DNA of 60,103 bases, the filler included, from Dugesia japonica (taxonomy: Eukaryota), in NCBI GenBank assembly GCA_001938525.1. It is 5 parts of 5 records of this genome, joined end to end, with 100 filler letters (N's around TTAATTAATTAA, not from the genome) between each part and the next. Parts side by side here need not be neighbours in the genome. Positions count along the whole stretch, not along the records: positions 30,355 to 39,346 come from MQRL01636596.1; 4 more parts are not named here. One strand, 5' to 3'. A model generated the notes under the pieces. That model saw only the letters and a program-made list of their open reading frames with translations, was not told the DNA's origin and did no database searches. Shown piece by piece: positions 11,624-59,750 of the stretch (position 1 is the stretch's first letter; every line of letters starts with the position of its first letter). A program made the position numbers and the translations under genes.

Positions 11624-13710
11624 ATGTTCAAAGAAAAGGAAACTAAGTTGTTCAAGTTCATAATGGACAATGAAAGCTCAGTCAATATTCGAGAACATCT
11701 AAAAAACGTCAAGGCCTTTATAAATTTATTCGATGCTTGTAGCATCACCACAGAAGAGAGAATTACTATATTTAGTAAATATTTTGACGACAACTTGACG
11801 AAGGAAATAAAATGTGATCCAAGCTGTGAAAGTACAAAGGTGGATATCGATTACTTGGAAAAACATCTTATCACTTTAATGGATGTTAAACCATCAAAAA
11901 TTAACCAAGCTATGATAATACTTGAATTAATGCAGTATCGAGGAGAAAAAATAACGGATTTTGCTAAGCGTATTCGTATGGAGAGCAGTGTTTTATCTGA
12001 CAAGAAAGACAAAAATCATGGTAAAAGCATTTATTAATGGCTTGTGACATTGACAATTGGCAAATGCACTAAAAATATTCGAACCAAAATCATTGGAAGA
12101 GGCTGTAGAAAGTATAAAAGATGAAAAACTTACAGATGTCTACGAAACGAATGAAAATGTATAATGTAATATGCGCCAAGAGAATGAAACTATAAAGAAT
12201 TTGAAAATTGAAATAGAAACTAAAGAATGAAATTTCCGAACTAAAGAGACACAATTAGAAATCTCGTGCACCAAATGTGTTTAATAAAAATAGGAATAAT
12301 AATGCACAAAGATCTGAAAAACCCTAAAAATGGATAACTATGGGTAGGCAAGAAACAAGAATATGTTTTACATGTGGTAAAAAGGCCATATAGCTAGAGA
12401 CTGCAATATCAAAAAATGTTTCAGGTGTGAGGGTGACCATCTTAAAAGAAACTGGAAACAAAAAGCAATCTAAGATACTATTACAAAAAGAAGAGCAAAC
12501 AGAATCCGTAATCAATGATGAACCAGAAGAAGAAGATCACATCGATGAAGTGAATACGATAAGTGAAAATAAACCATCTTGGAACACTCATTAATCTACT
12601 GAACTAATTAAAACGTTTAAACCGTTACTTGAAGATAAGTATGTCAATTTTATCGAAGGAAATCGAGCACGACCAAGACAAACACTTAGAAAATATGAAC
12701 TAACACTAATATCAATATCAATGCCAAAAAAAGCAAGAAATAAACCAATTGTTAAATGTCAGGTTGCAGGGATACCAGTAAAAACTATGTTTGACATGGG
12801 CGCTGATTTGAATGTTATAAGCCAGGAATTAGCCGAGCGTATCTGTAAAATGAACCCTGCTGTAAGAAATTTTAAATCTATAACAAAAGTAACATGCGCA
12901 AATGGTACAACAGAAGAATGTTTGGTGAATATACAATTAAATATGTCAATTAGACCTGTAATGACAGCACACGTGTTTGATATTATGCCGAATATATTTC
13001 CACATCTATATATTGGATTAAGAAACATGAAAAAATACGAAATAATAGTGGATGCAGAAGGGATGGAATAATAATACAGAATTTTAAGATTCCATTTATT
13101 TCAAAAACAGTTCTACCTGAGTCAATAAAAAACTAACACCGATCGCGTTAATGAGTTGTAATTCGGGATTCAGAAAAGCAGAGACTCGTGAGATTTATAA
13201 TGATAATCAATTTTATAGAATTCCGGTATCTGAAAATGTAGATGTAAGTGGAATTGGTGGATATTTTATCGAAGGCATGATAATAAACCACTCAGATCAG
13301 AAAATTACTTATGACACGAGTTAAGTATGGATTTTCACTGGAGATAAATAGAAAATGGCCGTGCGGAATCTTTTAGTAACAGATGGAATTACAATCGATA
13401 ATAATGAATACATGTGGGTAAGAATATATATGTTAGAAGGCGGATATAAAACTCTACATAGTGGAACTACACTCGAATATGTAGATTAGTTTAATCAAAA
13501 CGAAGAAGTGTTTGAAAAAGTATCACTTAGACAATTGTACTCTGAAAAACAAAGAACAGTGGAAGAAATTACAGACAATATACTGCAGAAAATTAAAAAT
13601 GATATGGAAGTTAAAAACAATTATTACGATTTGGTCAAAACATTAGCAATCCTTGAAAAGAATAAAGATGTATTTAGTCGATATAAGATGGATGTGGGTA
13701 AAACTGATGT
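11624..13710 (+). mobile_element. Ty3/Gypsy LTR retrotransposon gag-protease-(RT start), degenerate
   Basis: Gag-like ORF; frameshifted CCHC knuckle CFTCGKK(G)HIARDC at about 12363; aspartic protease FDMGADLNVIS; pre-RT KNKDVFS..KMDVGKT. Truncated by a linker. Confidence 0.85.
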
Positions 13711-13810
13711 NNNNNNNNNNNNNNNNNNNNNNNNNNNNNNNNNNNNNNNNNNNNTTAATTAATTAANNNNNNNNNNNNNNNNNNNNNNNNNNNNNNNNNN
13801 NNNNNNNNNN
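13711..13810. other. Artificial contig-joining linker
   Basis: 44 N + TTAATTAATTAA (stops in six frames) + 44 N. Confidence 0.9.
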
Positions 13811-16501: not shown

Positions 16502-17016
16502 ATGTAGTTAAAAATCCAAGTTAGACTATTAAGCAGGTTAAACCATGTTTATTGCATATAACATAAAAGAACAATAAATTAATTTCATATCTATTTCCAA
16601 TATTTTCGTAGTATTCAAAATCAACAAAATCAACTTTCAAAAATTAAACTTAAAACAAACCACATTCTCTCATACATACTTTTTATTTTTATTGAAAAAC
16701 AAATTATAAAATCAATATTTTAAACAAGCATTAATAAAAATTTAAAGAATTATCAAATTGCAAATGCAAAATATTTTCTCAGTAAAATGAAATATTCATC
16801 ATTAATAATTTCAAATTTGAAAACAAGAAAACGATTTTAATTCGATAATTGATTAATCGATTATATTATTAAGCATAAATTAATTCATGGCATTTAATAT
16901 ATAATATTGATGAAAATTATTTCAGTTACAATTTCAACACATTTACTTTAAATTTTTCCATTAAATTTTTAATTGAATATAATATAATTCCAACAATAAT
17001 AGATTTTAATACTTAC

Positions 17017-17484
17017 TTGAAAGCGATCTAAAGCAATTGCAGTAATGCTAATAGTGCTTACAAAGATGTTTGTACCCTGCAATAAGGCACTCAATTTACA
17101 CATTGGGTCCCCCAACACCCATTCTTGTTGACCAGATAATAATCGTATTAAATTAAATGGCTCGGTAAGTATACATAAAATCAAATCAGAGATGGCTAAA
17201 TTGACAATAAAAATATTTCTTGGACTTCTCATACTGCGACCGTGTACAACAGCGTATATAACAAGAGTACTGCCACAAGCTCCAAAAACCATTAAAGTTA
17301 CATAGATTGCGATCAAAATCCACAATACAGTACTACTTAAACTAAGTTGAGATTGCACTCGCATCTCTTCGAAAACAGCATCAAAACCAACACGGTTAGT
17401 TATATAAGCTGGATTACATCGGTGAAAATAAGATTGAAGATCTTTATAACTGTCGATAGGAATTGTACCACAGTCGTTTGTCAT
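17017..17484 (-). CDS. Neuropeptide Y/NPF-like rhodopsin-class GPCR, coding exon 1 (N-terminus, TM1-TM3)
   Basis: MRSPRNIFIVNLAISDLILC (TM2), WVLGDPMCK (ECL1/TM3), VSTISITAIALDRF (DRY-like). ATG at 17484; GT donor caa|gtaagt after 17017. Downstream exons were not found in this block. Confidence 0.88.
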
Positions 17485-18329
17485 GACTCCATTAAATATT
17501 TTCAAAAGTTGAAATTCAATAATAAAACAGACAATATTTCTGATTAATTTATGATTCGTTAACCAATCAAATTTAAATAATCGTTATTTAATATTAATGA
17601 GTAAACAAATTTATAACAAAGTTTAAGCTTATCATTTTTATTTTATCAAATTAAAACTGGTATCATTAATTTGTAATGGAAATATACGAAAGTTTTGAGA
17701 AATTTTAATTTCGAAACCTGAAATTTCTACTGATTTTTTGGAATTAAATTATTATTTTTTTGATTTTAATTAAATTAAATAAATGTTATCTTACATTTAA
17801 AAATGTTTTTATTACTTTTATTTTGACTTTTTTAATGCGTATGTTTGACTGACATAAGCACTGAATAAATTGTAAAATAAAAAAAAAGTACACTGAAAAA
17901 TCCAAATCCAGTGGGAAAATGGATAAATAAACATCAAACACAAATCTAGAAAGCAAGAATCAGGAAGAGAAATTAAAAATCAAAGAAACACAGGAATCAA
18001 ATATAACTAAAGAAAAAATAATTATGTTAGACAGTTTAATTGAATAAATAATAAAAGTAATCATAATACAATTTTAAATAAATCATATAATTTCCTTTAA
18101 TTTCTTGTTAGACATCCGAATGTTTCATAATTCTTTAAAATCAGCACCTAATAAAAATACAGCTGATTTTAAATTTTAATAATCATTGCTTTTAAGTTAT
18201 GTATTACATCATTCGGTTTGGTTTTAGTAAATAGATTTTGGTTTTAGCGTGATACCTTAATGTGTGAATCAAATTTTAATAATGGTTTTACTGCCGACCT
18301 CGCCGAAAATATTAATGTCATAACTTGCA

Positions 18330-29299: not shown

Positions 29300-30254
29300 T
29301 TTATGAGCTCATTATATAAATATAAATGTTTTTTATTCCTGATACCAAATTTTTATCGATTATGTAATTTTCACCTCATTTCACAACCATTCGTTATCTT
29401 TCCATCAAACTTTGAAGATTTTTCAGCAAGTTCCGATTTCATAGCATCTATGTTCGAGAATGATTTTTCAGGAAAAAAGCGAACAATGATCGAAAGAAAT
29501 AATAGTCAGATGGCGCACAATCAAATGAACATGGAGAATGGGGCATGAACACACATCTCATGTAGTGTAAGTTTCAAAAAGTCTTCTGTACTGCATGTGA
29601 ATTGGCGTTTTCTTGGTAAAATATCATCTTTTCGTTTATGACTAACAGCTACCAAAAGATTTAATTGTCAGCAGTAAAGGTCTCCATTAATGGTCTTACC
29701 CATCTAAATGAATAGTCGCCTTTAGTCTCATCATATCTACACAAAAGTCTTCGTCGGATGCAACCCTGGTTTGAAAGTATGTATTGGTACTTGGCCTGGA
29801 TATAACTATTAAATTTTTCTTTAAGACATTTTATACAACACTCATCCTCAATCACTATGAACTTCAAAAGGCTCAATAACGTGGCAAAGAAGTAAAAAAA
29901 TTGAAAATAGAAATTAGGATTTCTCTCTGAATTGGTGTTAATTCATTTGGCAGCTAAACAATGGTTTTCCAGACTTCACCAATCAGATGGATATGTTTTT
30001 GAACAGATGACTAACTAACTTTAAGAGTGATTTCTATTAATTCAATAATCAACTTCGAATCTTCTTCAACCAACTTTTGTAGACCATCATAGTAGTGGAA
30101 TAGTAGCACATCAAAACAAAGATCCCCGCCAAGGTTAATTGTTCTGAAATTTTAACGTCGAATGTCTAAGGTATGTTTAGGTATCTTCCATGAAAACCAT
30201 TAATTGGTCAATGTAATTTTTTTATTGAGTAACTTTTATTATGCTGTGTAATGT
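29300..30254 (-). mobile_element. mariner (DD34D) transposase remnant
   Basis: MPHSPCSFDCAPSDYYFFRSL (YSPDLAPSDY motif) at about 29490-29546; LLKFIVIEDE (IVTGDE motif). Truncated by a linker. Confidence 0.8.
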
Positions 30255-30354
30255 NNNNNNNNNNNNNNNNNNNNNNNNNNNNNNNNNNNNNNNNNNNNTT
30301 AATTAATTAANNNNNNNNNNNNNNNNNNNNNNNNNNNNNNNNNNNNNNNNNNNN
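30255..30354. other. Artificial contig-joining linker
   Basis: 44 N + TTAATTAATTAA + 44 N. Confidence 0.9.
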
Positions 30355-33300
30355 ACCTGTAGTACTTTCTAACAAATCTTTTAACACTCTTTTTACCTTC
30401 GCTGTAAGGTCTGTTTGATTACAATTCTGTGATGACACTGATTTAATGAATGCTGACTATCCACCTTGTTGATGGATCTATGGTTCAATCGTTCTCTGTA
30501 TAATTCCTGTCATCCGGAGCTGTCCTCCGTCTGGGAATTTTGCTGGTTTGTCCTTTGACAATGTGTATATAGCCTGGTGAAGTAGAAACGCTATGGTTAC
30601 TAGTGCTCTGTCTTTTGTAATTCCATAACGCAATAACTCGCATGCTACGCTTTCATCTTCTACTCTCGGTTTAATAGCACATCTCCATTTTGTCGATGGT
30701 ATTTTTATTAAAATCGGTNNNNNNNNNNNNNNNNNNNNNNNNNNNNNNNNNNNNNNNNNNNNNNNNNNNNNNNNNNNNNNNNNNNNNNNNNNNNNNNNNN
30801 NNNNNNNNNNNNNNNNNNNNNNNNNNNNNNNNNNNNNNNNNNNNNNNNNNNNNNNNNNNNNNNNNNNNNNNNNNNNNNNNNNNNNNNNNNNNNNNNNNNN
30901 NNNNNNNNNNNNNNNNNNNNNNNNNNNTCTGTCGGTTTAATTTGTATTCCGTTTTGATCATAACTGGGTTCGACACGTGGTCTGCCTCGTTTTCTGCGCT
31001 CTATCGATGTTTCTGCATCGCGTAATTCTCTTACTTCAAAATTATTTTCAAATGCTCTGCTGGGATTAATGACGTCTGTTGTATTCATTGGTTCTTGGCG
31101 TAAGAAATCAAACATGGGGTCGTCTTCTGTAATTATCTCGGTCGTTACAATTTCTTCAGCATCTAAATCTACATCATTTATATCTCTGTATGTTGGAGTT
31201 TTTTGTCTGGTTACTTCAGTTCTGCTTACTTTTGATTCTGGTTGCTCTACTTCTATGATTTCGATATCATCGTTTTCACTTGAGAGTCTGGATCTCCATG
31301 CTGTATGATCAAATATAGTTTCCTCTGGTTGGATACTTTCATAATTATCCTCTAAAAGTGCTGAATCTCCTCTACCAGTTGTATGGGTACTTGTTCTTTC
31401 CGGTGGATCAAAATTAGCTAACAATCGTTTAAATGATCGTATGGATTCGCCAGTACTTTGTTTTTCCGTTGACTTGATTTGAGTTTTAATATTTTCTGCT
31501 TCTGGTTTATTTCGTGAAGTGGCATATTTCTCTTTACGCTCGCTGCTCCTGGTTCTTATCGATGATTGAATTGGTTTGTCTTTTGCTCGAGTGCTACCTC
31601 TGCCGGTACTTGGTTGATCCTTTCTTGCGTTCTTACTTGGTTGATCTTTTCTTGTACTTGTACTTGGTTGATCATCTATTTCTATTATTTCCGGATCTTC
31701 ATCTTTTTTCTTTAACCAATGTTTTGGTGGTATAGGACGTACTGTAATTGCGTTTGGTCGTTTTGAGTTGAGTACTTGCATACCGATAATTTCATCATTT
31801 TGTATTGATCTACCTCGTAATTGGAAAAAATATGGTTCAACCCATGGTAATCTCTGCTTTATTTTCCCCATTCCTTTGTATGCCAATACTTCTATCTTTG
31901 AAGTTGCGCCAACAGGATCTGTTATTTTAAGTTCAAACTTTCTTGGAGGATCTTCTTCCATTTCCATTCTACGCCATTTCTTTATTAAATTTTCCAAATT
32001 TTCATGGAACCAATAATTTCCTTCTTTAAATATGTGGTTTCCTGAATCTCTTCACCATATGTTGATACTAAATCGTTGATTGCTTTTCGCAATGTCTCTC
32101 GTTTATGTGCTTTAATTTTATTGAATCGGTCAATGATTTTTCAGATATTTTTATCCTTCAAACTGTTAAAATGGTATAAAAGTGTTAACACGCTTCGAGC
32201 TAGCTTTTGATCCTGTGGCTGGTCCGATTCTGTTGTTTCATCTATTTCCTGTTGTGGGACTAACGTTTTCCCGTTAAGAGCTTCCATTACTCTATCACAA
32301 CTATCCTTTACTGATTTTAAAATGGCTGTTACTGTTCTTGGTGTAAAATATCGATCGGCTGTTTTCCTGCTTTCCATGTCTCCTCTTCTCCATACATAAA
32401 TGATACTAGTGCCTGGCCATATTCCCATATCAACTAAATTTTGATCCTCTACATATAAATCAAGTAAGTTCTCATTACTTACCGCTTCTACATCGTCTAA
32501 AGAGGTTAGTATTCCTTTAATTTCTTCCGAGTCTATATTGTATGTTTCAGCAGATTTTATTTGTAATTTTTGTTTACTAGTTCTTGATTCATCTTCGTCG
32601 CTTGATCCTTCTTCTAGATTATTTCTAATGTCATTCGTTGACTTTGTTGCTTGAGTTGTGCTTTGCAGCATGTTTATTGTTGCCATTGTAGTTGATATTT
32701 TTGGTTTAATTTCTGTTTCGAAGATATTTCATATATCGTCATTTATTTCTGATACGCTACGAATGCAAAATCGTTTCCACACCTCCGCTGGTATGTCGGG
32801 AAATTCATCGAGATGTATTAACCTGAGCCTTGTTTCTCCTCCAGGTCTTATTCCTGCATTACACAAATGTTTATTGCTGCAATCAATGTACACTAGATTC
32901 TAATTATTTCGAATAATGTATTCATCCAGTGGTTTGTTTAATGGTAATTTTCTTAATTCTCGTTTTAGACTACCTACTAAAACGGAGTCAAGCTGGATTC
33001 GTTGGCTTTCTTTTGCATATTTTTCCGTGATTCTGAATCCGCTGGGCCTGGTTATTGTAAATATTTTATGTCTGTAATCTTTTACTGAGGCTGCCCAATT
33101 TGATTTAACTGGTAATGCTAATGCATAGTGTCGGCATAATTACTCAATATTAAATAATAACTTCTTGTAAGTTTCTGTTGTTATCAAATTTCTCCATTGT
33201 TTGGCTTTTTCCTGTGCCAATGTAGCATTCATTATTTCTGGGGAATAATCTACAAATTTTCCTGCTTGTTTTGCGATTAGCATTTCTCTTTTATCCACTA

Positions 33301-33810
33301 CAGCTTCCATTTCTCTAACATCTTTTATCGGAATTTCATCTGGAATTATCACTCCTGGCCTAATATTAGGTTTGGCTACTTCTATAACTCTTTTTAAGAG
33401 TTCTTCCTTTAATTCTTTGCCCAGCTCCTGGGCTTTTTGCGTTTCCTCAATTACTATTTTTTGTATAAACCTCCACTATAAAGAGATCTTCTAAATGTTG
33501 TAGTATTTGCGTAATACTTCTGGATTCGTAGAAAGCCTGTAGTAGATTTCGCGATGAGTGGATTTTATCCCACTGAACCATTTTTATCGTGGTTATCTCC
33601 CCTGGTCTGATACCAAAGGTCGTAATATGAGCATTATCGTCATTCAGATTGATGACCGTTTGCCTTGTAATAGATGCATAATTTTGCAATGGCTTCAAGT
33701 GTTGGATTTTCTCTACCTTATTAGAGCTACCTTTTAAAGCTTGGTTTAATTCTTGATCTTGAAATAATTCGGATTCGGATTTACTTAAAGATCGGATAAT
33801 TCGTTTATTT
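30355..33810 (-). pseudogene. Degenerate, apparently intronless multidomain polyprotein (GIxPG repeats, low-complexity linker, AT-hook, Bcl-2-like domain); probable retroelement ORF
   Basis: ORFs 33447-33698, 33140-33352, 32141-32686 and 30708-31997 join through isolated stops and frameshifts into about 1100 codons. BH1/BH2-like motifs at 30442-30651. Confidence 0.7.
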
Positions 33811-34454
33811 GGTTGAGAATCCAGTGTAAAATCGATTTACAATCTATTAGATTCTGTTGTTGATGAATTTGTTATTTGTCGGTGAATTTGTGTTTTTGTT
33901 GTTTGAAAAATTTATTGATTTTAATGTCTATGAGTATTATTTTAGGGACACTAGCATTTTACCCCATTAAATATATAAATGAATAATCAATTAATACTTG
34001 CTTACCCGCTTCAGCCATTCTAATCGATCTTAATACTTCTTTTCTGTCATCATTTTTCATCAAATATTTTACGAGTTATTCAATTTCAACGGTTAAAATG
34101 ATTATTTTTGCCGTATTTAACTAGTTTTATTTCGATATATAATTAATATGCGTTCTTTTATAAATAATATAAGATACTATACTCGTCNNNNNNNNNNNNN
34201 NNNNNNTCATCCCGATGGATTGGAGAACGACACACTCGAACAAGGTGGAACAAGTCTATACCCGCCAGAAGGTAGTACACCTTGCCAAGCCAGTCGCTCC
34301 CAATCTTCCTTTCGAGACACTGAACCCTTCTGCCGATGATTGGACACTACGAAAGTCTCCAAGACCAGTCCACCAGGAGATCCTGCCCGACCTTGATCGC
34401 AATTTTCCGTGACATAGTCGCTTTCGCAGCTCCGTGAGCTCATAATTACCACAT

Positions 34455-35113
34455 GTGGTTTGCTGACCACACAAAATATAACAGTGGTTTGCTGACCACT
34501 AAAAAGGCCCAAAATGAGGATGGTTTGCTGACTACCTAGAATAATATAATGGGTACAATATCCGAAAAACAGTGATTTGCTGATCACTAATAATAGAATG
34601 GGTGGTTTGCCGACCACTAATAATTGAATTGGTGATTTGTTGATCACCAAGAATAATGGGGCCAAAATAATATAGTTATCATAATCATTTTCATAACTTA
34701 CTTCCTATTTTAACCATATTTTTTGTATTTTTTCTCTTTCTGCGCGCACTTTCATCTTTGCTTTAACACCTACCATCTACCTAATTCTGGTCACAGTTAT
34801 TAATAGCTCTTTCAACTGCTTTGATTGTGAGTTGATCAGACTCATCTCCACAGCCTTCCGAACCAAGGCTTTATTTCCTATGATCAAAACTAATGTGCGT
34901 TAAATGAAAAAGTTACCATTTCTTAAATCCACGCATGGTTTTTAGTCTGGGATCAATGCATCAGTCGGAGCTAACTTTATTTTATCCTAGTCTTATATTT
35001 TATTTTCATTTTTATCATATTTGATTTATCATCATTTTAATATCATGGGTACTATGCCCGAAAAACCGTGATTTACTGATCGCTAATAATAGAATGAGTG
35101 GTTTGCTGACCAC
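34455..35113 (+). repeat. Array of eight 16-bp palindromic units, consensus GTGRTTTGCTGAYCAC, with variable spacers
   Basis: Copies start at 34455, 34484, 34520, 34572, 34602, 34632, 35068 and 35098. Confidence 0.9.
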
Positions 35114-37499
35114 TAGAATAATAACAGTGGTAATCATGGCTCATAAATAACGATATATGTTCATTTCTATTTCTTCATATATTTGGTCGTATTTACTTTA
35201 TTTTCCTAATTACTGCTCCGACTCAACAATTTCATTCTTATTCCTATTTATCATTTATAATTCTTACTATCTATTTCTACATTGATCCCCATAAAGTNAT
35301 TGTAGCATTATTACTATCGTGAGTGAGTTTATTATTCGATTCATTTTTATTCAGAATTGCTATTTTTATTTTGAACATAATTTTACTTTTTTTTCATTTT
35401 ATCATATAATTTATTATTTTATTAATTCATATTTTATTACATACTCAATCAATAATCGTTGGATTGGAATGCTGGAATTTCTATCGTAGAATAAATGTAA
35501 AATTTCCTGAATATCAATTTATCAACATTAATAATTATTAAATTATAAATCCGAATTATCTTTGGTTATATATCTCGTAAATTAGTTTGAACAGTTTCAT
35601 TCAATATATCTTTTAAAACCATTACACCTTATTTATTTATGTTGTTTTAAATTGTACTTCAAAAGAAGCTCAAAAGTTATACATTTCGCACTCTAATTAG
35701 AGCTCTAGTTATTTTTGTACTTCTCAAAAGAAGCTCATTTAGTTAACCCTTAATNNNATCGTTCAGTTCAATTTTCTAGTTTATTTCGTCAATCCTAAAA
35801 TCCAGTTTTGTTAATTGTAAATCGCTTACAATTTTATCGTTTCTTGTAAAGTTTTGTTTAATTTTATTTATTATTCTCCAATTTCTTTTTTGATTATCAC
35901 CATCCAGTTTTCCATTTATTGTTGTTCGTTTTCTTATTTTGTTTCTTAGTTGATCACCAGTNNNNNNNNNNNNNNNNNNNNNNNNNNNNNNNNNNNNNNN
36001 NNNNNNNNNNNNNNNNNNNNNNNNNNNNNNNNNNNNNNNNNNNNNNNNNNNNNNNNNNNNNNNNNNNNNNNNNNNNNNNNNNNNNNNNNNNNNNNNNNNN
36101 NNNNNNNNNNNNNNNNNNNNNNNNNNNNNNNNNNNNNNNNNNNNNNNNNNNNNNNNNNNNNNNNNNNNNNNNNNNNNNNNNNNNNNNNNNNNNNNNNNNN
36201 NNNNNNNNNNNNNNNNTATTAATTCGTTTTAATATTTTAATATTCGTTTTATTTCCTCCGATTTTTTACGATTTAATATTTATTCGTTAATTATTTAAAT
36301 TATTAATTCGATTAATAATTTAATTTATATTTTAATTTTCTTCATTTCACAATCGCAATATTAATTCGTTTAATATCAAATATACCAAATCGTTTAATGT
36401 ATAAATTTATATTAATTCATTTAATATCTGAAATTTTCCTTTTGTTTTAATTTACCCAAATTACATTTTTATTTTTTAATGGTTTTAATATTAATTCGTT
36501 TAATATAATGAGAGTAGGTAAATGTGAGCGGATGACCGCACATCCCCCCACTGATCGATATATTGATTTTCGATATTGATTGATTTTTTTTGTTTTTTTG
36601 TTTAGAGTGCTGGGGAAGTGGAGGGAGGTGTGACATGCGCTCACATCAACCGCTTTTTGTAAATGCTCTTTTACACGGGAATTTCAAATTTTTTTGGTGG
36701 GAAATTTAAATTATTTTTTTCATGTTAGGATTATGGATTTTAATGGGTCTTTGAAAAATAAATATAAATTCATAAGTAAATATAATCTAAAAGGTTTCTA
36801 AGGGTTACAATTACTAGTTATCGCGTTTTTGTTGAAAAGAGTATTGCGAGGTTTTGTGGGATTTGGATGAAAGACGGTTTGAATGAACGAGAGTGAGTAG
36901 GGGTAGGTGATGGTGTCTGGTTTCGTTATTTTTTAGGTGATGATGTGTGTGTAAGTATATATTGAAAAACGATAAAACACATCCTTTAAGATTTTTGGGG
37001 TTCGATGGTAGATTTAATTTGGCCCTCAAAATTGGTCTATAGGTTGCTAAATGTAACTATGGACCAAAACGCACTTGAGGGTTGCAGTTATGGGTTAAAA
37101 TTAACTGTTAGTTACAGTGATAATTTTTCACATTTTTGTTAAAAACAGGGTAGTTATGTGAGTTTTAGTTGGATTTGGATGAATTTTGGTTTGAATGAAA
37201 GAGGGTGAGTTGGAATATGTGATGGTTTTGGTATTTGTTTACGTGATGGTGGTGGTGTGTGTTTAAGTATATATTGAAAAAAATGAAATTCGCAATATGT
37301 AGCTTTTGTTGCAAAAATGAATTTCAAATATATTTTTAGTGGTTTTATGAGATTAAAAATGATTAAACATGTGATTTGGGATTGTTTTGTGTTTCTCATG
37401 TGTTGCATTAATTAATATTTTAAATATTTCTTTATTTACTACTTATAAAATGAAAACTATTACAATACTAAACATTTATTGTTACAACATTTTAATTTT

Positions 37500-38750
37500 T
37501 CTTCTTTGTCTTCAGCTTTTTTTGTATTCCATAATTGTAAATCCATTATTTTTTTTAAGGTTTTCTACCGATTTCCCGTACAAGTTGTTGTTAACTAGTT
37601 TGTAATAATTTTTTTTCAAGTTCTGTATTACATTCTGCTCTTAATGTAGTGTTTGTTTCAATGTAATTTTCAAATACATGACCTTGAGTAAACCTTACCG
37701 CTCTATGGATCTCAGTCACCTTTACTCCCAAACTTATATATATATATATTTGTAGCAGTTTCCAGTGCAATACATGATTAGTTTTAGCGTAATTTGTTAA
37801 AATTAACTTTTAATTTTACTGCTTGGAGCGCTTTGCTGTTCTGCTGCTACTGGTATACCATTAAGATAATCATGAATTTCTAGTTGGATTATCATGTCTA
37901 CCTCCATGGTATACTCATCTGTTAATTTATCAAGATACAAACTTTTAAAATCTTTTAATACTTATTCTAAACCAGTATTTACCCACTCAAAGTCTTTAAA
38001 TTGTAATTTTTGGCTAAGAACCCATCCATACAGATTGTTAATATCAATATATTGTTATATCTGTGTTTTGACTGGTGGTGACACGATGTTTGTTAGCAAA
38101 TGTTAATCCACCCCTTATTCCACCTTCGAAAAAGGAATACATATCGTTGTCAATCAACAGTTCTATCGGTTCCTTCAATGACATCAAGGCTGATGCCAGC
38201 TCAAACCCGATATGCCAAAGAAATTTAATGGATCCAATTTATTGTGTGATATTAATTTTAATCTGAACTGTTGGAAAAGATCCACCAATAAATACACGTC
38301 CAGCTTCAAGTAAACAATCAAATAGTCCAGAAGGGTCTTACAATCTGTTATTCTCCACATTTCCAGTGCTTTTTCATACTCTTCATCTGTGATTTCATTC
38401 AATTTCAGTAGTGTGAGACATGACTGTTGTTTTTTTTTGTTGTTTCAACCCGAACTTGCAAACTGGTTGCATAATTATATGGAAATATCCCCTTTGACGT
38501 TGTTATTCTTCTATATAAACAAACAAATCGCCGTTTTAAAGTGTTGGTATTGTTTTTGCATCAACCTATTAATAATACTAACCAGAAATGCTTTTTTAAT
38601 AGTCACATTTTCGTATGTATTGACCGGCAGTCAGAAAGGGTTGCCGAGACTTGATTATATCTTTTATTGTTATTTAACCTTTGTTTTAGTGGTTCGCAAT
38701 GTATTTTCGGTTGAAAAGCACAAGTTTAGAAATAACAGCCTAATATAAAA
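37500..38750 (-). mobile_element. Polinton/Maverick protein-primed family-B DNA polymerase remnant
   Basis: KGIFPYNY; DYLIVYLKLDVYLLVDLFQQFR..LDP; FEGGIRGG; YIDINNLYGW; GYTMEVD; YYKLVNNNLYGKSVEN. Confidence 0.88.
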
Positions 38751-55800: not shown

Positions 55801-58800
55801 GAAAGAGTCCACGATCTATTCAACAGTCCTTTAATAATTTTGCACTTGTAACGAGATTCACAAAAACTGAAAGGAGATGTATACAAACCTGTATCGGTTG
55901 GTTTGTGATAAACCTCTGTTTCATCATGTTTGGATTTTCTTTCTATTAATATGTCAAGGATAGAAAATTTTTATTAAAAAAAATTGCCGTTTTCTTCGAT
56001 TATTTAATGAATGGTTATTACGTAATAAAACATGTAGATAATACAAAAATTGTATATTACCAGATAAATCTCCTTTTTTAGCTCTCCACAAGATCAATAA
56101 GGCATATGCTGCATCTTGGTCGGTAGAATTATTTCTGATATTTTCTAAATCATCAGGATTAGTAATTCCTAGAACAATTGCAAGTTTTTCCCAATCTCCT
56201 CCAATTTGTTCGGCGATTGAATGTAAATCAAATTCAGATTTAGCAATTTTATCGGTGCAAATACCTAAAGAAAAATACGTCATAAATAACACGAAACTCA
56301 AGATTACATATTTAAATTTTGTAATACACAATAAATTCTAACATTACACAAAATTAGTTACTATTTTTGATCTAAACATTTTCTTGAGTGCCTCATTGAT
56401 ATCGATTTTTAAAGCGTATTAAAAAGAACTATTCAACGTGACAAGAAATTAAATAACAAACAAACTAAATGTTTGTATCATAAATATTATAAAAATAGTT
56501 AGCAACATATTCCTTTTGTAGCATTTATTTTAATTTTTGAGAGTTTATAATATAAACTGTATTTTAAAAAAAAATAGAATTTTTCGTTTAATTGAAATTA
56601 ATCAATATCCAAGATAAAATATGTATAAATTACTTGGTTTAATAAATTCTCCTGTTTTAATTTTCTTTCTTCGAAGAGTATCTGATACTGGATAAATTTC
56701 ATTTGGCAAACAAATCTCAAGCGTTGTAATTGGCTTTTGAACTGCAGTGGTACCAAGTACATTTCTAAAGTGAAGAATTATTAATTTTTTATAGCTTAAA
56801 GATTAATACTAAAATATTTTTCAATGAGAACAAATCTAATGTAATCAAACTAAAAATTATAATTTAATGATGTCAAGAAATGTAATGTTTTTCTTATTCT
56901 AACATGAATTGAAAATTATTTGTAACTTAGTCACATCTCTTCAATATTTGAAATTTTACAAATTTAACACCACTGAAATTATGAATTATAAAACTGTAAA
57001 TGGAAGTAAATAAAAGAGATTATCGGAAAACATTAAATATATTTTAATTTAGATCAAATTCTAAGTATTTTTCGAAATGTATAAATTTGTCAATTTTATG
57101 AAAAAATGTCATTATTATCTATAACAAGGGTAGTCGACATTTTTAAACCTACAACTCACCTTAGTAATATTTTTAGTGGTAAAATTTTAAAAAAGAATCT
57201 TAATTTTAGAACGACCGAAAAGCATTCTTAATTTTAGGATGGATGTTTGTGAAAATATACGGTAAATCTCATCATTATACTATTTATACATTCATGTTTA
57301 TTTTTTAACACAATGTATAAAGTAAAATTGATTTGATTCATTTCTACATGTAAATAACTTCTGAAATAATAATTCCACCGTTCAATAAAGAAACTTGAAT
57401 CGTTCTGATCTATAGTCTAGTTTTCACAGGAATAATAATGCCCAAATTCCACAGAGTACTCGTTTTTACTCAAATTTTTCAAACAATGTAGACATTTATA
57501 ATATAATTGTTTCTCAAAAACAAAAATCGTTGGGTACATAAGTTTTTAAAAATATTTACCCAGAACCCAATCCTTGATTTCTTTGATGAAGGAGAATTGC
57601 CAATTTTCCTTTGGGTTCTTGTTGAGTATCTTTAACACGAACCAAGAAGCTGATTCTATTTTCATTTAATGCTTCAACAGTCATACTTAATTGATCGCCA
57701 GTTTTAGTAACAGGCACAAGATTACCAGCTGTTTCGATCCAATGAGGACGATTGTGTAAAACCTAAAATGAAAATTTATTGCACTGATATAAAAATTAAT
57801 TGAATTTTAATAATGATAATTATTTCTAGAGAAATTGTCAGATTTAACCATTATTCTCATTTTTAATTTTTTTGACAGTATATTTTTATGGCTTTATAAA
57901 AATACACATATCCCCCGATTTGCATGGTATTTTATTTACACGATTTCTCTTTTACACGGCTTTTAAAAAAAATTAAATTTAGTCATTTTTTAGTCTACTC
58001 CAAATTTCATTTTTTTTTGTTTTCTTATTTGGAATTTTTAAAATTTCATATTCACTGGTGATAAACAATTATTGGGTAATCATTTTCTACAAAATGACCC
58101 CAATATGGAACAAGTTAGTCTATTTCAGCGAGATATTAATAAATACTTAATTCAATATGATGAGGTCTAAAAAGATATGACCAAAAACCAAACACAATTG
58201 TTAATTACGGATTTCATTACCAAGTATCGCAGATCTGAGATTGTTTCTAATTCATCGAACATCGAACTTAAATCGCGTCAAGTACTATCGAGTGATAAAA
58301 GTGACACCATGCCAAATAGGAAGAAAAGAATTATAGCCTACGAAAGTGATAACAGTAATTAAATTTTCAGTTAAATTTTTGGAATTTATACTTTTTGTTT
58401 CTATATGTAAAATTAATTACATAAATATACCTTTATATTTTTGTTATTTTATGAATAGACATGTTATTTTTGCTTTATTTTACGTTGAAATAAATAACGG
58501 AATTATGCACATTTTAGTTGGTTTCCGATTTACGCGGTTTTACGAATAAAAATCTACGATTTCGATATGCATGATTTTCTAAGAAATCTGTCTTCAGTTT
58601 AAATTGGAGGATATGAGTATTACCATTTTATCTCTATAAAAATTAGTTCTTAATTTAATTTGAAAAAAGCTCCATGGATTTGCTTAATCTATTAAAATTA
58701 TAAAATTTCTAATCTAATTTTAACTGAAAATGTTTACAGTTCAAATATAAATTAGCAGTAATTAAAAATTATAACTTAATACTTGTTCTTAATCACATAG

Positions 58801-59750
58801 TAAATTTTATTTATAAATATAAAGTATATTTTAAAATTTTCATTCACAATTAACAAATTTAATTAAATTGGCTACAAATAGAAATATAATCAATTTATTC
58901 GTCATATATCTACCCAATAATAATTTCATTAACTCCAAAAATATAAAATTTCTCACTTCAACTAAAGGTCCACTAGCAATTAGTTGGAAATTTTCTTGGC
59001 ATTCCAATGTTTTATCGACAGAATCGTCAGTTAATCCAAGAATACGAAATTGTGCTTCCTCTTTATCATGTCTTCTTCCATAAACAACGAACTGACCCAT
59101 ATAAGGCACTACAGTAGACTCCCGATAAACATTTGTAGCCATTTCAGCAACTCCTTGAACATTTGGACAATCAATAAGCCACAATCTATGCATAATTATT
59201 ATTCAAATTTAACGGATAAAATAATTCTACCTTGCAGAAACGGTTGTAGTAAATGACACACAATCTTTATGGAATGATAATGGTGTTGATCCAGTAATGT
59301 CTTCCCAAACTGCAGGTGCACTTCCACCAGTGATGCTACAAAGTAATCTCAAACTAGGTGTACCACTACTATTGGGATCATTTATCATTCCTTTATTCGA
59401 CGTTTTTGGCAATGGGACTGTTAGAGTGATAGGTTTGTGAAATTTGCGTCTTCTGGGTTCAATACTAATAATAGGACTACATGCTACTCTATTTCCAAGT
59501 AATCTTGTAACGATTTCTGTTGGTATTTCATGAGCTTGAATGCCAACTCTTGTTTTCTTTAAAAGAGCTCCTTCGGGAAATACAGCCTGAACTTGAGGTA
59601 CAACAGAAGAACTCATAACAACACCTTCAGGACCAATTAAAGCGACTTCTTGTCTGATTCTAGTAATTAATGCAAAATATTGCGGCAAATCTGATGTTAA
59701 AATTCTTTGAATTCTATTTGCTCTGACTTCCTCATTAGTCATTAATTTTT
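49836..59750 (-). CDS. ank: Ankyrin (Ank2/unc-44-like), 3' part: ZU5, UPA, death domain and long C-terminal tail; the 5' ankyrin repeats lie beyond the window
   Basis: Phase-consistent GT-AG exons: 59231-59750, 58957-59185, 57560-57762, 56634-56764, 56061-56264, 54866-54997, 54700-54822 (or 54825), 54487-54654, 54300-54443, 54168-54248, then 52408 down to about 51715 (or stop 51675) and/or 51543-50032, and 49836-49852. Motifs [82 protein letters not shown]. Confidence 0.92.
50032..51543 (-). CDS. Large acidic Ser/Thr-rich exon, probably an ankyrin long-isoform tail
   Basis: About 500 codons open in roughly 70% AT DNA. Phase-1 acceptor ttattgacag, compatible with the upstream ankyrin exon. 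Donor tcag|gttag joins to GSDDQ* at 49836-49852. Confidence 0.7.
51675..52408 (-). CDS. Second large Ser/Asp-rich exon, probably an alternative or additional ankyrin tail exon
   Basis: About 245 open codons; phase-1 acceptor aaatgttag|ga. Confidence 0.6.
53464..53652. mobile_element. hAT (Buster/Charlie-type) MITE in an ankyrin intron
   Basis: CAGTGGT...ACCACTG termini; perfect 8-bp TSD ATTTAGTT. Confidence 0.85.
55200..55950 (-). mobile_element. Penelope-like element fragment (RT C-terminus plus GIY-YIG endonuclease)
   Basis: [23 protein letters not shown]; L.KNGY; YKYEC*G.NATYIG*AFRHL.IRIQEH; [13 protein letters not shown]. Confidence 0.85.
56061..56264 (-). CDS. ank: Ankyrin death-domain exon (first part)
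   Basis: [21 protein letters not shown]...ALLILW; continues in 54866-54997 ([17 protein letters not shown]). Confidence 0.9.
57905..58617 (+). mobile_element. Tigger/pogo-like non-autonomous element in an ankyrin intron
   Basis: TA|cacatatcccccgattt ... aaattggaggatatgag|TA TIRs. Internal QTQLLITDF (pogo/Tigger C-terminal QxxITDF motif). Confidence 0.7.
59231..59750 (-). CDS. ank: Ankyrin exon, ZU5-ZU5 spectrin-binding region
   Basis: [13 protein letters not shown]-type motif; ttttag acceptor and gtag donor. Confidence 0.95.

Follow-up and report, generated by a model that had tools for sequence, protein, structure and literature searches.

Planarian Burro elements are the largest LTR retrotransposons described and may be proviruses; they carry SUMO-like and BCL2-like domains along with tandem repeats, and decaying fragments of them occur in Dugesia japonica (PMC6431247). 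Burro1 has been reported to support stem cells in regeneration (as cited in PMC13465017). The Burro literature that we searched gives no account of hairpins such as those described below, although Grohme 2018, Lee 2026 (Dev Cell), or the supplements may annotate the leader, and the literature searched gives none of how such long Burro RNA gets chosen for packaging or translation; within its available sections, the Burro review marks tandem repeats and mentions no hairpins (PMC6431247). In retroviruses, long-range RNA pairing is used in packaging, namely the U5-AUG duplex of HIV-1 and the U5-gag interactions of MMTV and FIV (PMC13736810, in part). Structured leaders and repeat arrays are already known in LTR elements as a kind.

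Here, we describe an array of eight short dyad units in an AT-rich 60,103-nt stretch of the D. japonica genome, filler included (hereafter, the window; assembly GCA_001938525.1). The pattern GTGRT-TTGCTG-AYCAC (up to three mismatches) has eight matches in the window, a number reached in 0 of 100 shuffles where 0.73 would be expected. All of them fall within 34455-35113 and make up the array of eight 16-nt hairpins that an earlier note on this DNA had described (Table 1). A covariance model of the eight units revealed no ninth in the window, the next plus-strand match having an E value of 0.94. The spacers are, in order, 13, 20, 36, 14, 14, 420, and 14 nt, the first five exactly as reported before, and four of the seven start-to-start distances are 29-30 bp. 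The last two units lie in a re-duplication, also correctly recognized earlier (34542-34619 and 35038-35115, 88% alike). A second small hairpin motif, GGGTA-CTA-TGCCC, adjoins units 4 and 7 (34551-34563 and 35047-35059; pairing probability of 0.9 predicted on the plus strand), and loose read ends suggest its tandem repetition in the RNA relative described below. Rfam gave 0 matches in the window (best E of 2.4 in 34300-35500, below the gathering threshold), two-unit pattern scans of viral and metagenome contigs gave 0 matches, and no locus related to the array was found in viral contigs. A 23-nt scan returned two loci, which were rejected: each is a lone chance match where a fungal-type transporter gene begins (GC content of 52%, otherwise unlike the window). 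RUNX, CRP, and papillomavirus E2 sites, compared by eye, were also set aside, as they leave the GTGAT form and the polarity of the units unexplained.

Table 1. Coordinates of the array, the predicted enclosing helix, and the adjoining frame in the window
Feature	Position	Strand	Remarks
Unit 1	34455..34470	-	Pattern match; sense GUGGU-CAGCAA-ACCAC; outer pair A-T in RNA relative
Unit 2	34484..34499	-	Pattern match; stem perfect
Unit 3	34520..34535	-	Outer pair A.C on plus (G.U on minus), A-T in RNA relative; G.T at 34533 private
Unit 4	34572..34587	-	Pattern match; GTGAT/ATCAC type
Unit 5	34602..34617	-	Pattern match; loop change at 34611 private to window insertion
Unit 6	34632..34647	-	GTGAT/ATCAC type; 8-bp extended stem; loop change at 34640 private
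Unit 7	35068..35083	-	Decayed twin of unit 4; C.T closing mismatch
Unit 8	35098..35113	-	Twin of unit 5
Second copy of 34542-34619	35038..35115		88% alike; holds GGGTA-CTA-TGCCC at 35047-35059 plus units 7-8
Helix 5' arm	35127..35143	-	Predicted; pair probability 0.94-0.99
Helix 3' arm	34435..34452	-	Predicted; contains ATG 34443-34441
78-codon frame from ATG 34443	34207..34443	-	Likely start of broken polyprotein frame
Rest of broken frame	30358..34187	-	In-frame stops, frame switches, one assembly gap

The stems of the units vary while remaining paired. Aligned as a 7-pair helix, the eight units are paired in 48 of 56 cells, and seven cells are changed on both sides, a number found in 0 of 500 shuffles, although this control overstates covariation because the units are related by duplication. 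The joint arm change GTGAT...ATCAC, noted previously for 34572 and 34632, was confirmed and is present in unit 7 as well, so that changes at stem position 4 are symmetric in three of three units; this double change probably counts as a single event that was spread by duplication. The closing pairs of units 1-8 read TA, AT, GC, AT, GT, GC, CT, and AT on the plus strand. The closing pair thus takes three Watson-Crick forms; the C.T mismatch of unit 7 had been passed over earlier. The loop is nearly constant when judged by identity among units 1-6 (89%, versus 27% for the closing pair and 34% for the left flank), although TTGCTG itself occurs in only 5 of 8 units, with two of the three changes private to the window. 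A constant loop on a stem whose end varies but stays paired is typical of hairpin-binding proteins.

A diverged relative seen in poly(A) RNA adds further paired changes. Units 1-4 are covered by 15, 13, and 21 poly(A) reads in three samples, 48 of the 49 reads being less than 90% alike to the window; the three paired runs come from one study and are of low depth, and as their reads run in both directions across the array, we infer rather than observe the sense strand of the array RNA. The relative has T at 34470 (29/29 reads) and, immediately before the arm of unit 1 on its 5' side, A (19/19 reads, 7 as a substitution and 12 as an insertion, read here as one sequence), which together change the outer pair of unit 1 from G-C to A-T. 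It also has T at 34535 (24/25 reads), which pairs with A34520 to make the outer pair of unit 3 A-T. On the sense strand, the outer pair is G-C, G.U, or A-U, depending on the unit and the copy, and the loops are unchanged in the main read class. Counter-evidence comes from one RNA run, in which a stem change at 34497 (4/11 reads) and a loop change at 34530 (4/8 reads) were found, with two starts each. At least three double changes out of eight independent substitutions arose in 52-249 of 200,000 toy simulations, the model of which does not include template switching. The earlier proposal of selection on the stem is thus supported, and covariation is stronger than had been claimed; the array is a real and probably selected cis-element within a decayed element copy. 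Over 34430-34665, the poly(A)-read variants are absent from the run X2 contigs and may represent a rare expressed subfamily or another strain.

Comparison with other genomic copies separates what belongs to the repeat from what belongs to this insertion. In two contig runs (one of them presumably DNA), 5,424 and 13,087 contigs align over 32000-35960, most of them 90-99% alike, figures that are not copy counts. The array and the open reading frame (ORF) both lie in this one high-copy repeat, bearing out the linkage to the element that the earlier note wanted checked by co-occurrence. The contigs of run X2 differ from the window at 34533 in 270165.6 of 270254.6 depth (99.97%), at 34611 in 229511.6 of 229526.7 (99.99%), and at 34640 in 354304.3 of 356571.8 (99.4%). 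Private decay of the window insertion thus accounts for the G.T pair of unit 3 at 34533 and for two of the three loop changes, those at 34611 and 34640. Depth about doubles over 34574-34597, where the duplicate copy fits too, and the contig comparison has no variant at 34579 or 34586; the changes of unit 7, including its G.T (twin position 34586), are therefore probably private, although an absent variant is weak evidence, that at 34640 appearing in one listing and missing from another. A34520, for which neither contigs nor RNA reads give a variant, appears to be common to the copies and forms a G.U pair on the minus strand. Of the 96 sites in units, 3 carry private changes, as do 4 of the 140 sites elsewhere, whereas shared polymorphisms (10-95%) fall on 0 of 96 and 8 of 140, respectively (Fisher p of 0.023, which overstates the difference, since a single linked variant likely underlies four of the eight polymorphic sites and the duplicate may be the source of two others).

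The array is predicted to be closed by a 17-bp helix, 35143-35127 with 34452-34435, in the minus-strand fold of 34400-35170. Its arms reach -23.5 kcal/mol on the minus strand versus -19.3 kcal/mol on the plus strand, and none of 2,000 shuffled flank pairs was as stable on either strand. The helix is continuous, with a G.U pair, on the minus strand, and 12 of its 17 pairs lie outside the unit motif. The RNA relative differs at 34449, in the 3' arm, in 19/19 reads; the partner base near 35130 falls outside the best 40 of 546 variants listed. In the global minus-strand fold, local hairpins with a probability above 0.5 are predicted only at units 1, 4, and 6, while units 2/8 and 3/5 pair together; near-identical unit arms would permit many pairing registers, possibly also between two RNAs.

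The 3' arm would cover the likely start codon of the element. The frame opened by ATG 34443 is the best of three (+0.7 versus -9.8 and -16.9), though weak in absolute terms, and past a 19-N gap one frame runs on to 33840 with 5 stops in 114 codons, versus 14 and 14 in the others. Based on these coding signals, ATG 34443 is likely where the reading frame starts, at a distance from unit 1 of 12 nt and not of the 0.7 kb or so that the earlier note gave for a Bcl-2-bearing ORF; the nearest long stop-free frame starts 0.6 kb away (33836). The units themselves do not qualify as coding sequence: one stop-free frame with a score of +7.7 crosses units 1-6, but it lacks any ATG ahead of 34443, the units stand in different frames (periods of 29 and 52), and the spacers of other copies contain indels of 1 and 2 nt. 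As in the leaders of HIV-1, MMTV, and FIV, a long-range helix would here close a stem-loop domain and hide a start codon, and the MLV hairpins SL-C and SL-D (GACG) likewise repeat one common loop (PMC13736810, in part). However, the array packs eight near-identical hairpins, which arose in tandem, into a domain of 0.7 kb, whereas retroviruses have two to four distinct ones (same excerpts), and the 5' helix arm here is not tied to a U5. The 5' TIPIRT of Ty1 is likewise a structured LTR-retrotransposon 5' RNA serving translation and packaging, but it combines a pseudoknot with two complementary loops, whereas the loops of the array are identical and not complementary (PMC5454406, in part); no 6-nt sequence complementary to the loop, CAGCAA, is present on the sense strand within 30000-36000.

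Downstream of the likely start, the frame is broken. On the minus strand at 32378-33770, three repeats of ~70 residues with a G-I-x-P-G motif look ubiquitin-like by eye. At ~30640-30445, about 3.8 kb from the array, there are motifs that look BH1/BH2-like by eye; the earlier Bcl-2 label has no Pfam or PDB match behind it. Neither these nor the ubiquitin/SUMO-like parts of the frame gave a Pfam, PDB, or protein-homologue match, blanks that are no evidence of novelty. Protein searches including Atlas found no homologue of the frame, profiles of its internal repeats against PDB sequences reached a best E of 0.27, and its single-sequence fold (pLDDT of 44.6) matched nothing. No Gag-CCHC, env, PR, RT, RH, or IN was found in 30358-34443; as the fragment is bounded by assembly gaps, such Gag/RT-type domains may sit in unassembled parts. 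No LTR was identified, there being no second copy in the window, nor was any zinc knuckle or primer-binding site found there. CA-(0-3)-TGG occurs in the window only at 34455, 34516, and 36553, the first of which is not kept in the RNA relative, and a primer-binding site at 34451 is not supported, its TGG being gone in 19/19 RNA reads. At 35950-35961, against an assembly gap, lies a half-site resembling unit 6 (TTGATCACCA), the minus strand of which opens with TGG in a primer-site-like manner.

With Burro/GYPSM1, the element in the window shares a planarian host, high copy number, internal tandem repeats, decayed copies with stops and frameshifts, and a long polyprotein-like frame in which, in the window, ubiquitin/SUMO-like and BCL2-like motifs are seen by eye (PMC6431247, in part). 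The host is planarian, an NPYR-6-like GPCR in the window being 87% identical to that of Schmidtea mediterranea and 50% to the next match listed, and the numbers of contigs over 32000-35960 indicate the high copy number. Unlike in Burro/GYPSM1, no Gag, CCHC, MATH, BIR, env, PR, RT, IN, or LTR was identified beside the array. Given the host, the copy number, the domain-like motifs, and their match to the Burro descriptions, it is likely that the array-bearing repeat is a Burro-type giant Ty3/gypsy retrotransposon.

The G-T pairs had been taken to favor the plus strand, a claim that fails. Although G-T pairs are present in the units at 34520 and 35068, the former (34533) is private and the latter probably so, and the A.C pair of unit 3 had been omitted; moreover, the non-Watson-Crick pairs common to copies split evenly, the unit 3 outer pair favoring the minus strand and the unit 5 closing pair, G.T in 28% of contig depth, favoring the plus strand. 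Any C-to-T change on the plus strand also creates a G.T pair there. Folding is divided as well: the enclosing helix is better on the minus strand, whereas single hairpins are more stable on the plus strand by 0.2-2.7 kcal/mol in the six best-paired units (owing to an extra U.G pair), and the whole-region z-score is -3.44 on the plus versus -1.78 on the minus strand (20 shuffles). At 35387, a long poly-T (median of 64) precedes the site in four reads of run X21, and AATAAA occurs at 35415 on the minus strand. A minus-strand RNA may have its poly(A) end at this site, which would then resemble the R/U5 border of an LTR; internal priming could also account for it, given how rich in T the stretch is.

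We tentatively read the array as Gag-binding stem-loops in a structured 5' leader with a translation/packaging switch, a model in which our confidence falls somewhat short of even. Under this model, Gag made by the element itself would bind the eight predicted stem-loops, which share one constant loop, and the predicted long-range helix spanning the likely initiation codon would decide whether the RNA is translated or packaged. The constancy of the loop, the variable yet paired stem, the free spacers, the position before the start, and the helix across that codon are all in keeping with a retroelement leader. Among known systems, the array would come closest in its working to retroviral packaging leaders that a U5-AUG-type duplex closes. 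The fuller proposal, that this is the packaging signal of 30-kb Burro elements, with an array of eight stem-loops grown in tandem, multivalent Gag loading, and closure by the start-codon helix, is possible but doubtful.

The same sense-strand RNA hairpins could instead bind a host RNA-binding protein that acts in translation, export, or stability of a very long transcript and not in packaging. The structural evidence is equal to that for Gag binding, no Gag is seen in the adjacent frame, the array stops 12 nt short of the likely start codon, and, with many upstream ATGs in the leader, scanning would need help; nevertheless, there is no Rfam family match, and the start-codon helix fits a retroviral packaging switch (PMC13736810, in part), so that we regard a host ligand as unlikely. 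It also seems improbable that the units act in double-stranded DNA, as dyad sites (GTGRT-N6-AYCAC) for a dimeric protein in an enhancer, insulator, or anti-silencing array. The layout does resemble the Drosophila gypsy insulator, in which 12 Su(Hw) sites form short conserved cores among variable AT-rich spacers in a gypsy-type 5' UTR (PMC2374998, in part): in the array, too, variable AT-rich spacers separate conserved cores upstream of the ORF, a spacing of 29-30 bp is about three helical turns, and folding does not settle the strand. However, Su(Hw) sites are non-palindromic and function at the DNA level, whereas the array cores are dyads with paired changes, and the unit core lacks the TGCATA of the Su(Hw) consensus YRYTGCATAYYY (PMC2374998, in part). 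Furthermore, dimer half-sites need no joint change, yet stem position 4 changed symmetrically every time, the closing pair varies but stays paired, and the outer pairs of the relative are matched; the asymmetric 6-nt center is conserved as much as the arms, and the 17-bp enclosing helix would be left unexplained.

Alternatively, the array could be a neutral palindromic minisatellite, one whose symmetry is maintained by template switching and which slippage and conversion homogenize. Template switching can fix stem pairing in a single event, without selection (PMC8794818, in part), a single origin suffices for the GTGAT form, units 7-8 are plain duplication, and Burro elements carry tandem repeats (PMC6431247, in part). 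Template switching cannot, however, explain a constant loop alongside diverged spacers, 12 of the 17 enclosing-helix pairs lie outside the unit motif, and shared polymorphisms avoid the units while private changes do not (weak evidence); neutrality is accordingly quite unlikely in our judgment. Action of the hairpins on the plus strand, as antisense RNA or as single-stranded cDNA in reverse transcription, would draw on the U.G pair and tetraloop that they gain there, the z-score, and the G.T closing pair of unit 5. Against this, the 34533 wobble is private decay, the minus strand carries both the ORF and the possible poly(A) end, and the plus-strand form of the enclosing helix is weaker by 4 kcal/mol, which makes plus-strand action very improbable. 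If the fuller Burro proposal is correct, the array would represent a multivalent means of selecting one of the longest known retroelement RNAs. The compact, covarying leader, with its defined loop and its predicted helix over the likely start codon, offers a direct target for probing and CLIP.

Elsewhere in the window, the four gaps at 13711, 30255, 39347, and 47757 (44 N, 12 nt, and 44 N each) are scaffolding linkers and not biology. A decayed fragment at 37590-38444 (minus strand) resembles a Polinton-type DNA polymerase B by eye, with no significant Pfam match. At 11624-13071 lies part of a different Ty3/gypsy element, which gave an aspartyl protease match. Host genes are represented by an NPYR-6-like receptor exon (16969-17505) and by ankyrin-like exons with ZU5, UPA, and death domains (55954-59742, minus strand).
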